DNA of 64,000 nucleotides. Origin: a virus. Position 1 is the first letter of the stretch. Every line of letters begins with the position of its first letter. The notes beneath the pieces are model-generated. The model was given only the letters and a program-made list of their open reading frames with translations. It did not search any database and was not told the DNA's origin. The stretch spans positions 59,583-123,582 of the IMG/VR virus record IMGVR_UViG_3300025362_000004; one strand, given 5' to 3'. This document shows positions 4,075-29,363 of the stretch, in pieces. Position numbers and translations under genes: made by a program.

Positions 4075-4148
4075 GGGGATATAGTATAATGGGATTACGG
4101 GTGGTTTGCAACCACTTAATCGGGGTTCAACTCCCCGTATCTCCACCA
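4075..4148 (+). tRNA. tRNA-Ala(TGC)
   Basis: G3:U70, TGC loop. Confidence 0.9.
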
Positions 4149-4156
4149 AATGAAAT

Positions 4157-4231
4157 GGATTAGTAGCTCAGTGGTAGAGCAAGCGGCTGTTAACCGCTAG
4201 GTCGTAGGTTCAAGTCCTACTTAGTCCGCCA
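4157..4231 (+). tRNA. tRNA-Asn(GTT)
   Basis: Cloverleaf. Confidence 0.9.
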
Positions 4232-8867: not shown

Positions 8868-8944
8868 GGGGATATAGGCCAATTGGAAGAGTCAATGCGC
8901 TTAAAACGCATAAAGTGCGGGTTCAACTCCCGCTATCCTTACCA
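8868..8944 (+). tRNA. tRNA-Leu(TAA), short variable loop
   Basis: ATGCG-CTTAAAA-CGCAT. Confidence 0.8.
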
Positions 8945-9075: not shown

Positions 9076-9152
9076 GCGTCTGTAGCCCAATGGAAGAGGC
9101 AAATGATTTAAGCTCATTACAGGTGGGGGTTCGAATCCCCCGAGACGTACCA
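9076..9152 (+). tRNA. tRNA-Leu(TAA), short variable loop
   Basis: AATGA-TTTAAGC-TCATT. Confidence 0.8.
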
Positions 9153-9440: not shown

Positions 9441-9518
9441 GGGAGTGTGACGCAACTGGAAAGACGTGTTAGTCTTAGAAACTAAATTTTGGGGGTTCAA
9501 ATCCCCCTACTCCCACCA
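9441..9518 (+). tRNA. tRNA-Leu(TAG), short variable loop
   Basis: TTAGT-CTTAGAA-ACTAA. Confidence 0.85.
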
Positions 9519-18005: not shown

Positions 18006-18397
18006 GGGGCTGTTTATGGATTCGACAGGGTAAAAACGGATACGATTAGCATAGGTTCGATGGAACTAAAACACACGATAAAACAATCGGAAACTTATTT
18101 AACACAGTTATTTCTTGGGTAAAGGGTTTATTCTCTCCAAGAGTAGCACTTTCAGTCTAAGAAGAGACAGAACGAATTTATAACTATTACCTATAAGTTA
18201 TAATTTCGCCAGAATATAGGATACGACTACTGACTAATACAAAGTGGTAAGAGATAAATTGTATTGAACGATTCGTAATAAAGTTTGTATGTAGTAAAAA
18301 GCGAAAAGTTCTAAAACCCTCTAAAAACATACTAACTATGTAGAATATGGTATCACGAATATCGTGGACAGGGGTTCAAATCCCCTCAGCTCCACCA
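18006..18397 (+). ncRNA. ssrA: tmRNA
   Basis: GGGGCTG..GGATTCGAC 5' end, GGTTCAAATCCCCTCAGCTCCACCA 3' end, G3:U70, tag ORF 18089-18160. Confidence 0.95.
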
Positions 18398-19002: not shown

Positions 19003-19373
19003 TGATACTAAGAGATGTTTTAGATGAAGCAAAAGAGGGAGATTATTTCGTATTAGACGCAGAATTGCCAGGCGATATTATCAACCAATTAGATGAAATT
19101 GAGTTAGATTACAATGAAAAATACACTTGTTGCTCAGGCGATAAAGATAAAGTATTTGATTATTGTGGCGACGAAGACCTATTAGAAGAAGAAGTTACTG
19201 GTTATAATAAAAGTGGTAACAGAATTTATATCACAATAGGAGAGTTTGGTTCATACGAAATCTATGAACATTATTTAGAAATCGTAGCAACAAAAGTTAT
19301 GAATTACGAGCAATGGCTTGATGATTATAAAGACGCATTTAAAGAATTAGAAGATTTACAGAAATACAGATAA
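19002..19373 (+). CDS. acidic hypothetical protein
   Basis: TAATG coupling. Confidence 0.7.
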   Translation: MILRDVLDEAKEGDYFVLDAELPGDIINQLDEIELDYNEKYTCCSGDKDKVFDYCGDEDLLEEEVTGYNKSGNRIYITIGEFGSYEIYEHYLEIVATKVMNYEQWLDDYKDAFKELEDLQKYR

Positions 19374-19667
19374 AGAAATTGACCTAACGCACTAAGGTGA
19401 GGAAAGTCCGAACTACTATATCGCTTAACGCCGTATCTCTAATAAAGTATGGCAGGTATGGAACAGAGACGAGTAAATTTATTTGGCTTATTATTATATT
19501 ATTTTACACCGAGTATAACGGGTAGAATATTATACATGTGATTGTTACGACGTAAGCAAATAAATGGATATGAAACGGCTGTATCTGGCGAGGTAGCAAG
19601 TCAAACTATGGTAGACGCAAATAGGTAGATGTTAGGATAAAACAGAATTCGGCTTACTAATTTTTTT
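19373..19667 (+). ncRNA. rnpB: RNase P RNA
   Basis: Universal GAGGAAAGTCCG and AAACAGAATTCGGCTTAC (P4) motifs, terminal P1 pairing. Confidence 0.9.
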
Positions 19668-19697
19668 ACTTCTGAAATAAAATACAAAGGAGAATAT

Positions 19698-20132: not shown

Positions 20133-20342
20133 TATGAAGAGAGCGTACGACATAATTGCGTCAGGGTCTTCTCGAAGGTTCAATTCCTTCCTTCATAACC
20201 ATATTACGAAGAGCGAGTGCGACATAATTGCGCCAGAGCTAATTGGAGGTTAAATCCCTCTCTTCGTAACCATGCTGAGGAGAGTGTGCGACATAATTGC
20301 GCCAGAGTCTAATTGAGGGTACGATGCCCTCCCTCATCACCA
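20133..20342 (+). ncRNA. three tandem D-armless tRNA-like RNAs
   Basis: Units at 20133-20201, 20205-20272, 20274-20342; each has acceptor, T-arm, ACCA and a shared CGACATAATTGCG core. Confidence 0.75.
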
Positions 20343-20469
20343 AAAAATCTATAAGCGAGGTATAAAAATGGAAAATCGGAATATAAACCTAGTTTTAAAT
20401 CAAGAGAGAACCAAGAACTAGACATGGAAGTTTACTTCCATGTAAAATAAATGGAAGAGGTGCAATAAA

Positions 20470-20985
20470 ATGAGCAAATTTAAAAAAATACCATTATCAA
20501 AACAAACAAAACCATACCACTCACGGACATATGGTCAATTAATTGAAGAAGATATGTTTTTCATCCTTGGCGAAAGACTAAAAATGTCTAATAATCCTTG
20601 TATATTGTTTATAGGAACAGATAGTCAAACATTCTCACAAACAAAGGTTATTAGTGTTATTGCTGTCCATGAAATTGGACACGGCGGTTTCTGGTTCCAT
20701 ACAGTAGACTGGACAGATGCATATAGAAAAGCTAGAATTGCAGAAAAAATTGCTGAAGAAACAGTTCGTTCAATCGAATTAGCTAAGAAAGTTATTAAGT
20801 TTGTTGAAGATAATAAATTAGACGTAAGTATTAAAATCCATGCAGATGTTGGGCGTGGTAAACATAGTAAAACAAAAGAAATGATTAACTGGGTAGTTGC
20901 AATGATTGAAGCCGAAGGATTTGAAGCGGAAATCAAACCAAACTCTTGGGCTGCATCAAGTATCGCAGATAGAATTTCAAAATAA
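20470..20985 (+). CDS. RNase H-like YkuK/DUF458 family protein
   Basis: IGTDSQ, E...S, IHADVG, IKP.SWAAS.IAD. Confidence 0.85.
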   Translation: MSKFKKIPLSKQTKPYHSRTYGQLIEEDMFFILGERLKMSNNPCILFIGTDSQTFSQTKVISVIAVHEIGHGGFWFHTVDWTDAYRKARIAEKIAEETVRSIELAKKVIKFVEDNKLDVSIKIHADVGRGKHSKTKEMINWVVAMIEAEGFEAEIKPNSWAASSIADRISK

Positions 20986-21702: not shown

Positions 21703-21799
21703 ATTTGATTTTCTTTATGGTTTATGATATAATTATATTATAACTAAGTGAGATATATAATATTATTTAGTTATCGGTCTTTGAAAAACAAATGAGAAA

Positions 21800-23580
21800 T
21801 TATCACTCATTTCATATGAAATTAATGGTGGCCTCAAAGCTGTTCGCGGCTTAAAGGTGGGTATCAACACGAACTCCAAAGGTTCGTTCGTAGTCCAAAA
21901 GACAAGGGGATATCGCTGTTATCATTAGTTGTTGTAAATTAATACCATCGGTGGTCATTTAGTAAAGTGAGAGTAGCGTCTCAAACTATACTATGGGAAA
22001 ATGATTTTACTGCTGTTGACGGGGAGAAATGCCTCTATAACACGGGTGGTAGTTGAACGTAGAAACCAGTAGAATTTTTAAATAATTAAGCAAATGCTAA
22101 ATTTGTAGGTAATCAATCCTACCTATTACACGCCTTGTGCAATATAGAGACCTTGCTAGTCAATATATGTAATAGTCGCATAATGAATAAGTTGTATATG
22201 TATTGGACTTCCTAATCAGAAGACCCTAACGTAAGTTAGTACACTAAAACCCTAACTCTTGCTTGGAGTAAGTGGCGTATAAATGAGGTTGAAATACCTT
22301 TCGAGCCTGTTGAGGCAAATTTATACGGCGAAACATATATAATTTAATTAGTGCATCGAGAAGCGACTCAGTATCTGGGGCCCGCGACCCTCCCAGGGCG
22401 TGGATGAGACCCAAGCGTAGATATGAAAACCGTTGAAACGGGTAAAACCGTGTATAATGAGTCAAGCCAATTCGAGTAAAAGCATAAAAACGGAAAAAAA
22501 TACAGATACTTTCTTAAAGTGAAAGTTGACTTGTTTAAGACAGGTAAAATAGATTAAAGCCTACGTACTTGTGAGTAATCAATCTCACTATCCTTCGGGA
22601 TATGTAATGAACCAACACAGTTAATGAATAAACTTATTGGTAAGATAATAAATCCAATCCGTTAATTTTATATGAAATGAGTGAATAACACGAGGCAGTT
22701 TAGTGTCTCTAAAGGGAAAAGGTGGGTAACCATCTGGAAGGTATTTGACAAATATCGCTATGTAATATAGCCCGTCTAAACAAAAGTAGTCAAGTGAGAG
22801 TATTAAAAATGTAGCTCACTCTTCAAGATAGTAACGAATTGTTGGAGAATAGATACTGTTATTATGTTAAAAGGAGTCAACGGCAAGTGCTTAGATTCTG
22901 TGGTTATCTCGTGGTGGGATAATCGGCATATCCAAAAATAATAGAATTGAAAGAAAACTACAAGGGTAATAAGTATGAGGTTAGCAACTAAATGCAGTTA
23001 CCCATTAAGTAAAGTAAAAATGGAGCTTTATTTAAAGTGAAAGTACCGCGAGGAAATCACAACGGAGATATTGAATATTTTGTGTCCCAAAAGGAAACGA
23101 AGTTCAGGTTGAAGTATATCTTCTGTCAAAACAAACAATACATATGGGGGTTCGAGTCCCTCCCTAGCCTCCAATAAAAATTATATGGCTGGGTAGCTTA
23201 ATGGGTAAAGCAGTTGTCTAAGAAACAATACATTTGTATAAGCGAAATCTTCAAAGATTTAAGATGAAAATGCCTTAATTCCACAGAGTAATACTTAATG
23301 TGGAGCAGTAAAACTCGCAAGGTAATACTGTTTGATAAGGAAATGCACGGCGTCTCTAGCGAGACTTAGTGAGTCGCAAGCTCACACGGTAATGGAATTG
23401 TCGATTAATCTTAAATGACAGGGTGCTAAGCATCATCCTTCCAGAGATGGTAAAACAAAGCAGGCATGCTTCTAAACAGACCCGAGTCTGTGGATAAGTT
23501 AATTAACACGTGCAGATAAGCATCGCGTGGTACGATTAACTAAAGTAGGAGTATTAAAGATATAATCTCAGTCTTTAAAA
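21800..23580 (+). ncRNA. giant (about 1.8 kb) structured RNA locus, GOLLD-like 3' part
   Basis: Promoter at 21705, terminator at 23589, no credible ORF, 26-bp long-range helix 21803-21828/22659-22684, embedded permuted tRNA. Confidence 0.7.
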
Positions 23581-23588
23581 ACTAAACT

Positions 23589-23612
23589 AGCACTTCCGAG
23601 TGCTCTTTTTTT
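23589..23612 (+). terminator. intrinsic terminator
   Basis: AGCACT-TCCG-AGTGCT plus T run. Confidence 0.85.
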
Positions 23613-23716
23613 ATGGAATAAAAGTAAATACATAAATTAAAAATTGACTTTTGGTTTAAATTATGTTATAATTAAGTATAAAAAGATAGATATATATTTA
23701 ATATTAGGAGAGTAAA

Positions 23717-27345: not shown

Positions 27346-27436
27346 TATAGATTGTGCGACTTTTGAATAAAAAGTCGCATTTTTTATTATTGACTTTTTT
27401 CCAATTTTGTGATATAATAAATTATAAAGATGTAAA

Positions 27437-27500
27437 GGTAAAGTTATTGGGAAATAACTACACAAAATTAAGAGCCTAGAACAGGTAGTCTGATTGCCAC
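27437..27500 (+). promoter_or_regulatory. c-di-GMP-I (GEMM-I) riboswitch
   Basis: GGTAAA-stem-GNRA-stem-ACACAAAA...GCCTA..AGGTAG...TTGCC, between a promoter and an ORF. Confidence 0.75.
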
Positions 27501-27531
27501 TTTAAATCAAAAAACTTAAAGGTGGTTTAAA

Positions 27532-28005
27532 ATGAAAAATTTAAAAAGAAAACTTATTGCGACATTCACAGTAATGATGTTTGCCTTACTGGCAACAATT
27601 GGAACAACTTATGCTTACTGGAATTACTTTGTACATACAGAGTCTAGTATTACAGTAGAAGTTGGAGTAGCCGACAGAATAGTCGTAGCAATTAACACAA
27701 CAGGTGCAGGTGCTTTAGTCCCAGCAGGACAATCTACAGGTGCTGAAGTTGAATCTATTGTATTGACTTATGATGTTTCAGTTACACAAGGTGCAGTTGA
27801 CAGTGGTATTACAACATTATCTGTAACAACAGCAAATGAATCAACAGCATTAGTTAACATCTCTGTTAGCGCGCCAACAACTTTAACAGTGGCTAATCAA
27901 ACAGTTACGGTTACAGTTACATTAGATTCCCCAGCAGACCAAGCGGCTTATGATGCTTTAATTGCAGCTGGGATTACATTCGACTTAGTTTTTACTATAG
28001 CGTAA
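27532..28005 (+). CDS. secreted TasA/SipW-signal-like protein
   Basis: Signal peptide ending GTTYAYW. Confidence 0.7.
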   Translation: MKNLKRKLIATFTVMMFALLATIGTTYAYWNYFVHTESSITVEVGVADRIVVAINTTGAGALVPAGQSTGAEVESIVLTYDVSVTQGAVDSGITTLSVTTANESTALVNISVSAPTTLTVANQTVTVTVTLDSPADQAAYDALIAAGITFDLVFTIA

Positions 28006-29285: not shown

Positions 29286-29363
29286 GGGAGTATAGTGTCA
29301 ACTGGACAGCACGTCGGCCTTCAAACCCGTACAGCCCCAGTTCAATTCTGGGTACTCCTGCCA
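29286..29363 (+). tRNA. tRNA-Trp(TCA), opal-reading
   Basis: CTTCAAA loop, G73, class I fold, mismatched anticodon stem. Confidence 0.8.

Follow-up and report, generated by a model that had tools for sequence, protein, structure and literature searches.

The 64,000-nt stretch of DNA analyzed here (hereafter, the window) corresponds to the latter half of IMGVR_UViG_3300025362_000004, a 123,582-bp virus record from a salt-lake metagenome, and it encodes a GOLLD RNA whose inter-domain linker holds a circularly permuted, CCA-bearing module resembling a transfer RNA (tRNA). ARAGORN placed 39 tRNA genes and a transfer-messenger RNA (tmRNA) gene in the window, mostly upstream of the GOLLD RNA, which is located in a phage record and next to a tRNA array. 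The tmRNA is a one-piece gene at 18006-18397, called by both ARAGORN and Rfam. The conserved part of the GOLLD RNA (Table 1) matches Rfam family RF02032 over the full model (positions 1-416; E = 4e-40) with 150.4 bits, a score barely above the gathering cut-off of 150. It begins with a first hairpin (23063-23123), which is separated from the 3' domain by a linker that has no consensus structure in the Rfam model. The variable 5' domain is within the noncoding stretch 21703-23062. Its boundary could not be set by similarity, given that blastn against other GOLLD loci recognized only the hairpin at ~23062-23112; a blastn search of 22600-23700 against the phage collection gave no match. Other members of the family have been seen by cryo-electron microscopy to assemble into multimeric RNA cages (bioRxiv 10.1101/2024.12.08.627333; PMC12990946).

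A permuted tRNA-like module in the GOLLD linker

In the Rfam alignment, the module (23133-23233, repeat copies included) appears as an insertion at GOLLD model columns 62-130, within the unstructured linker and thus between the first hairpin and the 3' domain, which is the position of GOLLD-linker tRNAs. The DNA first encodes the T-arm and the acceptor 3' strand with its U-CCA; after a 13-nt A/T spacer come the acceptor 5' strand, the D-arm, and a hairpin that resembles an anticodon arm. An earlier note on this DNA had described a circularly permuted, CCA-bearing tRNA inside a giant RNA, and a direct reading located all of its listed elements, with the anticodon 5' strand GTTGT at 23213-23217; the permuted arrangement is borne out, and Rfam identifies the giant RNA as GOLLD.

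The 11-bp flanking direct repeat given in the same note, AAACAATACAT, is exact at 23133 and 23223, with a period of 90. These are its only two matches in the window, compared with 0.20 expected, and at least two matches were obtained in 3 of 100 shuffles. When mismatches are allowed, the repeat extends to 17 nt at 88% identity, and a 1-nt shift, read from the sequence, takes the similarity back to TGTC. The last bases of the upstream copy are the variable-loop nucleotides ahead of the T-stem (U at 23145).

TABLE 1 Features of the GOLLD RNA and of its permuted tRNA-like module
Feature	Position	Strand	Basis or observation
12-nt perfect complement of D-stem/D-loop 23197-23208, 187 nt apart	22998..23009	+	Inverted repeat in GOLLD 5' region
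GOLLD conserved part: first hairpin, inter-domain linker, 3' domain	23063..23574	+	Rfam RF02032
Upstream repeat copy, with exact 11-mer 23133-23143 and ACAAT 23135-23139	23130..23146	+	Repeat search
T-arm, 5-bp stem GGGGG/CCCTC, loop TTCGAGT	23146..23162	+	2/5 pairs changed on both sides, 100% paired in five sequences; RNAalifold
Acceptor 3' strand CCTAGCC (23163-23169), discriminator U (23170), CCA (23171-23173)	23163..23173	+	Direct reading
13-nt A/T spacer closing the acceptor helix, T at -1	23174..23186	+	Like phage inter-tRNA spacers
Acceptor 5' strand GGCTGGG; 7/7 pairs with 23163-23169	23187..23193	+	4/7 pairs changed on both sides
U8-A9 and D-arm (D-arm 23196-23211); loop GG would meet T-loop	23194..23211	+	Covariation set, RNAalifold
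Local anticodon-like hairpin GTTGT-CTAAGAA-ACAAT, 5-bp stem, "anticodon" AAG 23220-23222	23213..23229	+	4/5 pairs changed on both sides; minimum-energy fold
Downstream repeat copy, exact 11-mer 23223-23233; chain exit to GOLLD 3' domain	23220..23236	+	Repeat search
Terminator-like hairpin followed by T run	23589..23604	+	15 nt past end of GOLLD match

The module has neither the 5'-to-3' order of a normal tRNA gene nor the contiguity and one-amino-acid identity of a canonical tRNA. In its native order, it was called as a tRNA neither by ARAGORN (which called 40 genes elsewhere) nor by the Rfam tRNA model at the gathering score. Only after the 77 nt were re-joined in silico did they give a full cloverleaf with CCA, comprising the 7-bp acceptor helix, the D, anticodon, and T arms, and the tertiary nucleotides; none of 2,000 shuffles of those 77 nt gave one. 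The native order is, on the other hand, matched by the Rfam model of the Y RNA YrlA (28.0 bits, E = 0.0018, 23145-23211), and this match covers the T-arm, the closed acceptor helix, and the D-arm.

A tRNA fold is also supported by covariation among five modules (those of the window and of loci L121, L124, L125, and L126, described below). We found 99% of cells paired and 11 of 20 pairs changed on both sides; 0 of 500 shuffles reached any of the five measures used, and slid controls were 38-58% paired. RNAalifold, run on its own alignment, recovered the T, acceptor, and D helices with 15 pairs, 7 of them compensatory. No variation is seen among the modules at the positions of tertiary contacts (U8, the GG of the D-loop, the T-loop, and the U ahead of the T-stem), and the T directly before the T-stem is present in all five, although the T- and D-loop identity of L124-L126 was partly imposed by the search pattern; L121 was found independently. 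Folding energy alone does not set the module apart (window z-score, -1.27, which is weak). A helix closing the module through its flanks appeared in the minimum-energy fold of the window, but RNAalifold did not recover it across the relatives, and we dropped it as a conserved feature.

Relatives of the module inside and outside GOLLD RNAs

A scan of viral contigs for the GOLLD 3' motif retrieved at least 120 loci. Searching GOLLD loci for permuted inserts, a check proposed in the earlier note, produced one further case, L121, which was picked out by an ARAGORN doubling test. Its GOLLD scores 138.2 bits, its module starts 80 nt into the GOLLD match (81 nt in the window), and the module itself is matched by beta_tmRNA RF01850 with 24.1 bits. 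Because the two GOLLDs share only 42% identity in their 3' domains (rank 87 of 108), the module is either an old feature or one that was acquired independently. The L121 record also holds a TROVE gene ~9 kb from the module.

We then have the results of a T-loop/D-loop motif scan of viral contigs, which returned the same six loci with or without a CCA requirement. Four are true modules (L121, L124, L125, and L126), each with 7/7 acceptor pairs; L122 and L123, with 4 and 2 of 7 pairs, were discarded as false positives. The same motif was found at 31 loci in metagenome contigs and at 9 in genome contigs, but these contributed nothing further apart from L129 and L148, the latter being a second copy of the L125 contig. 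Rfam detected no GOLLD around the modules of L124-L126, which lie in a ~780-nt noncoding stretch with tRNA genes before it and a 548-aa open reading frame (ORF) after it.

All five modules carry CCA, as found by the pattern that did not require it. Re-joined, they show the anticodons AAG, ATT, GTA (twice), and TTA, and the discriminators U, G, and A; by our own reading, the loops of L124 and L125 have A before the anticodon placed by ARAGORN, where tRNAs have U. A comparison of L124 with L125, made by eye on the alignment, revealed that the spacer is identical at 6 of 17 positions and the remaining module is identical, and the tRNA genes neighboring L124, L125, and L126 encode CCA in 0/2, 0/2, and 0/1 cases.

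Looser searches were also made. A generic back-to-front scanner gave 18 hits in 2.5 Mb, compared with 0 on reversed sequence; L208, for example, has two modules with NCCA and 5-8-nt spacers. The raw material of the scanner came from a pattern combining the T-loop with a GOLLD-linker motif, which was too loose (at least 118 loci) for any other use. L276 was rejected as a tandem tRNA-Ser pair, and the junction calls in L114 were rejected as chimeras of adjacent Gly tRNAs. A covariance model built from the five modules (R1) retrieved no additional module from the window and 126 loci, its next-best matches (18-47 bits) apparently being junctions of neighboring tRNA genes, as judged from coordinates. 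Among the phage's own tRNAs, there is no close paralogue of the module (best identities, 53/77 and 54/78), so it is not a recent copy of one of them.

Several observations were made at the relatives. The 548-aa ORF directly after the module-bearing RNA of L125 (1790-3436, minus strand) has homologues in L124 and L126; it had no Pfam, PHROG, or PDB-sequence match, whereas its language-model features pointed to viral TROVE/vWA_Ro60 clusters (0.94), and it may be a very divergent phage Ro60. No relative of it was found in the phage record of the window. Just upstream of the permuted module of L125, in the same noncoding transcript region, ~4095-4230 (minus strand) encodes a ~135-nt RNA whose ends form a 7-bp acceptor helix and which has a T-arm plus ACCA and a long body insert; the same place in L124 holds its counterpart. 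L195 (minus strand) shows a T-arm, an acceptor 3' strand, ACCA, a 3-nt spacer, and an acceptor 5' strand, and the sequence that follows resembles what we take to be the start of a tmRNA, so this is presumably a permuted two-piece tmRNA gene in a phage.

Proposed nicking of the module by RNase P

We favor, with middling confidence, the reading that this is a functional permuted tRNA-like module in the inter-domain linker of GOLLD that is most likely nicked by RNase P and acts as a tRNA mimic rather than a decoder. The module folds into a full tRNA body from the T-arm, the 7-bp acceptor helix, the D-arm, and its own anticodon-like hairpin, with the GOLLD 5' domain entering just before the T-arm and the 3' domain exiting just after the anticodon hairpin. 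GOLLD is hence joined at the variable-loop position, where long-arm tRNAs bear their extra arm. RNase P is predicted to cut between 23186 and 23187, after which 3' exonucleases would trim the spacer to the CCA at 23173, as in Mycobacterium smegmatis YrlA. The product would be a nicked, two-piece GOLLD with a tRNA-like clasp that holds the pieces together and a free CCA end.

Whether such processing takes place is, in our view, evenly balanced, and several features make it plausible. M. smegmatis YrlA is an RNase P substrate both in vivo and in vitro; once cut, it carries CCA, and its two halves stay in the particle. A 7-bp acceptor helix is described as the determinant for this cleavage, which the Salmonella and Deinococcus Y RNAs do not undergo (Chen et al. 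2014, PMC4201824); the acceptor helix of the module likewise has 7 bp. The suggestion in the earlier note that tRNA-processing nucleases mature the RNA is reasonable. NCCA is kept in all five modules, including those of L124-L126 with their CCA-less neighboring tRNAs, and beside the fixed CCA the spacer is free to vary. In addition, a T precedes G23187, as it does in 36 of 40 phage tRNAs, and a candidate RNase P RNA is encoded at 19371-19672 (+). The note had invoked a phage RNase P RNA, and this candidate answers to it, but only as a sub-threshold match to the bacterial class A model (43.6 bits vs a cut-off of 100; E = 1.3e-13 for the genome). At ~302 nt, it covers the full model span with part of the model deleted, and the core motifs GAGGAAAGUCCG and ACAGAAUUCGGCUUAC are present. 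If a phage does encode such a minimal RNase P RNA, this would be of note by itself.

The same note had proposed a chargeable CCA end. Such an end is possible, but a shared aminoacylation identity is unlikely because neither the discriminators (U, G, A) nor the anticodon loops show conservation, and, judging from the sequence, aminoacylation of the module seems improbable. Neither a CCA-adding enzyme nor RtcB was found in the phage record.

A number of observations weigh against nicking, and some of them favor a rival that we consider quite possible, namely that the same conserved module is never cut. It would then be an uncut tRNA-shaped handle in GOLLD for tRNA-binding proteins or RNA-RNA contacts, its acceptor helix staying closed by the loop of CCA and spacer, as in Salmonella YrlA, and the CCA and spacer would be inherited baggage. 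The close relative L129 has no CCA and a closed loop of only 8 nt, and CCA is also missing from the phage modules of L260, L274, L285, and L045. Loops of 4-7 nt, among them a TTCG tetraloop, close the modules of L260 and L274, and loops of 17-25 nt close those of L285 and L045; since several of these looser modules are closed by loops as short as 4-7 nt, the closed form is viable. The CCA and the T at -1 could have been inherited from a tandem tRNA ancestor, as they are the default of the phage's tRNA genes (40/40 and 36/40, respectively). S. Typhimurium YrlA and D. radiodurans Yrn1 were not seen to be cleaved by Chen et al. (PMC4201824), and the pseudo-tRNA of the mycobacterial (M. aubagnense) GOLLD gave no separate Northern signal, and hence no free pseudo-tRNA (PMC6582537). 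The linker is described as facing the interior of the assembled cage (PMC12990946), so RNase P access may be shielded. An RNase P RNA match was obtained in 0 of the 4 other module-bearing records, which are incomplete, and the module is present in only 2 of 121 GOLLD regions examined. The pattern-imposed loop identity of L124-L126 counts on this side as well. Finally, the runs compared are contigs, in which RNA ends are not observed; the single RNA run gave a 156-nt contig (22919-23074, 4 differences) that stops short of the module and is uninformative on processing.

Three observations nevertheless count against a module that is never cut. CCA has been kept in L124-L126 despite the CCA-less neighboring tRNAs and a spacer that has diverged to 6/17. 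The full 7-bp acceptor helix, the feature tied to cleavage by Chen et al., is present in all five close modules. Ordinary tRNAs embedded in the GOLLD linker (L018, L029, and L086) encode CCA in 0 of 3 cases, compared with 43 of 48 for the other tRNAs in those loci, which argues that CCA is not passively retained in the linker.

GOLLD enters and leaves at the variable loop

According to the earlier note, the anticodon loop is where the rest of the giant RNA joins the module. In that version, the upstream ACAAT at 23135-23139 pairs with GTTGT at 23213-23217, the anticodon loop is opened, and the local hairpin GTTGT-CTAAGAA-ACAAT is an alternative, switch-like state. Both pairings are possible in the window, and the upstream copy is correctly spaced relative to the T-stem. 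The resulting topology would also be that of YrlA, whose Rfam model matches here, and the 12-nt complement of the D-arm hints at alternative pairings. This complement was seen in the window only, with no counterpart in L121, L124-L126, or L129, and it may be an alternative D-arm partner or switch, or due to chance.

Our comparison of the five modules points elsewhere. The anticodon-like arm is a complete local hairpin in each of them, with 4 of 5 pairs changed on both sides, and it is part of the minimum-energy fold; what had been taken for an alternative arm is actually the conserved one. When the end of this hairpin is joined to the five bases before the T-stem, ARAGORN calls a tRNA in 5 of 5 cases. 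By eye, the flanks of L121, L124, L125, and L126 contain no counterpart of the upstream ACAAT/11-mer copy, that is, no upstream complement of the anticodon 5' strand. The break in the tRNA body is at the variable-loop position and not at the anticodon loop: because the local hairpin covaries and re-joining at the variable loop gives tRNA calls throughout, we conclude that GOLLD enters and leaves there. Attachment at the anticodon loop is accordingly very unlikely.

Origin of the module

The module most probably originated at a junction of tandem tRNAs. Its simplest source is a fragment that runs across the point where two tandem copies of one tRNA meet, and the 11-17-nt repeat would be their leftover overlap. 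This origin is suggested by the spacer, which is A/T-rich like the 18 short inter-tRNA spacers of the phage, by the encoded CCA of all 40 phage tRNAs, and by the extension of the repeat to 17 nt. The upstream ACAAT copy is then probably a decayed remnant of the first tRNA copy, including its anticodon loop, the 3' strand of the anticodon stem, and the variable loop.

The phage has three tRNAs with leucine anticodons (TAA, TAA, and TAG, at 8868-8944, 9076-9152, and 9441-9518), all with short 5-6-nt variable loops. A long extra arm is expected of a bacterial tRNA-Leu, and the permuted module (AAG) shares the short shape of these three.

Such an origin could also have left a nonfunctional scar, i.e., a decaying tandem-tRNA junction fragment that was caught in the GOLLD linker because this linker is variable and tolerant. 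The linker varies and lacks structure in the Rfam model, the upstream anticodon-loop copy has already diverged (17 nt at 88%), and few GOLLDs carry the module (2 of 121 regions). Moreover, a degenerate fragment comprising a T-arm, an acceptor 3' strand, and ACCA is also found at 20313-20397 (+), between a small ORF and an RNaseH-like gene; it is without a proper 5' partner and scores 32.6 bits with R1. We nonetheless assign a scar very little probability. All four helices are intact in the window and kept by compensatory changes in the relatives, the same module occupies the same linker position in the distant GOLLD of L121, and none of the tertiary-contact positions named above varies.

Misassembly at the 11-nt repeat, against which the earlier note advised a check, has a negligible probability: contigs of runs X3 and X4 do break near 23148-23219, but a 702-nt contig from an independent salt-lake run (X2; another sample and another study) bridges 22952-23650, including both repeat copies, with 0 differences, the repeat is shorter than the 31-letter words of the Logan index for these runs, and four other contigs have the same gene order.

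Comparison with known permuted and embedded tRNA-like RNAs

The closest known kind is the YrlA Y-RNA tRNA mimic (RF02553), especially that of M. smegmatis. The two share the order of T-arm, loop-closed acceptor helix, and D-arm, as well as a tRNA-like T-loop and D-loop; the M. smegmatis RNA additionally shares the 7-bp acceptor helix, and its known maturation is the one proposed here for GOLLD. YrlA is, however, a free-standing RNA of ~100-150 nt that is opened at the anticodon position and whose ends form the Ro60-binding stem (PMC4201824), whereas the module forms an anticodon hairpin of its own, opens at the variable loop, lies within GOLLD, and has its CCA encoded rather than added. The YrlA match (28.0 bits) is below the gathering score of 69. 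Only model positions 30-81 of 114 align, and instead of a Ro60-binding stem we found GOLLD flanks and the local hairpin at that position. No TROVE/Ro60 gene matched in the complete phage record at E <= 0.01. The module shows that a YrlA-style mimic is portable, as it also exists apart from Ro60 systems and in a complete form that includes an anticodon arm.

Two-piece tmRNA contains a T-arm, an acceptor 3' strand, CCA, an intervening segment, and an acceptor 5' strand, and excision of the segment leaves two paired pieces with a chargeable end. It has no anticodon arm, a reduced D-arm, a tag reading frame, and pseudoknots. The earlier note had taken it as the precedent. This holds for the permuted acceptor/T-arm domain with CCA and an intervening segment, which the module shares, while M. 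smegmatis YrlA is the better precedent for processing. Unlike tmRNA, the module has an anticodon arm, no tag frame or pseudoknots were seen in it, and the tmRNA model gave only 9.2 bits; an ARAGORN tmRNA search of the window returned the one-piece gene alone.

Permuted tRNA genes are also known from Cyanidioschyzon merolae and some other algae, in which the 3' half is upstream of the 5' half and a short intervening sequence joins the acceptor ends. These genes are free-standing and yield a decoding tRNA by way of a bulge-helix-bulge junction, a circular intermediate, and a eukaryal/archaeal splicing endonuclease and ligase. In contrast, the outer ends of the module run into GOLLD, its setting is a bacterial phage, and the ligase RtcB was not found in the record.

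GOLLD linkers are known to contain tRNAs or pseudo-tRNAs (Kretsch et al. bioRxiv 10.1101/2024.12.08.627333; PMC12990946; PMC6582537). Among the matches listed for our 120 GOLLD-motif loci, 3 (L018, L029, and L086) show an ordinary tRNA at this place. They share with the module the host RNA and the insertion site, which directly precedes the conserved first part of the 3' domain, but they have the normal 5'-to-3' order and are tied to GOLLD by their acceptor ends. Cutting such a tRNA would release it and split the GOLLD halves, whereas cutting the permuted form would keep the halves clasped. The tRNA embedded in L029 has the anticodon CTA (amber reading) and that of L086 has ATT. tRNAs or pseudo-tRNAs in the GOLLD linker were reportedly treated by Weinberg et al. 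in 2009 and Morgado et al. in 2020 as well. In our literature search, GOLLD was not connected with a permuted or Y-RNA-like module in any paper; supplements, including the phage YrlA lists of Chen 2014 and those of the cryo-electron microscopy papers, were outside this search and may hold similar modules.

Neighboring genes and other RNAs

The genes just upstream of the ~2-kb noncoding GOLLD region form an RNA-repair/processing neighborhood. The product of 21220-21702 matches "HAD domain of Swiss Army Knife RNA repair proteins" (E = 3e-20), and that of 20470-20985 is an RNaseH-like protein (E = 6e-34). The phage genome also contains a c-di-GMP-I riboswitch aptamer (27427-27501, +; 49.1 bits vs a cut-off of 35) directly upstream of the ORF 27532-28005, and a tRNA at 29286-29360 (+) that Rfam detects with 43.5 bits and ARAGORN does not call.

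Implications for GOLLD biology

The tRNAs seen in some linkers are one of the few clues to the function of the large, RNA-only GOLLD cage. The module described here is real and conserved, and it offers a concrete, testable idea on GOLLD, though it is rare among GOLLDs and its processing is inferred. A permuted module alters the outcome of tRNA processing: instead of releasing a tRNA, cleavage would produce a nick and a cage-attached, tRNA-shaped clasp with a free CCA. Moreover, CCA is kept in the permuted modules and absent from the ordinary linker tRNAs that we examined, a difference for which all models of GOLLD function must account.

It is conceivable, though unlikely, that in GOLLD cages of this kind each protomer consists of two RNA pieces clasped by a tRNA-shaped joint. 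Every protomer would then present a matured tRNA mimic whose CCA end is free and might be charged and whose anticodon-like loop is exposed. If this were true, the cage would be a 12- to 14-valent tRNA decoy or docking platform during infection, able to sequester or attract host factors that act on tRNA (anticodon nucleases, RNase P, CCA-adding enzyme, synthetases, or EF-Tu), and it would provide the first concrete functional handle on the purpose of the GOLLD cage.

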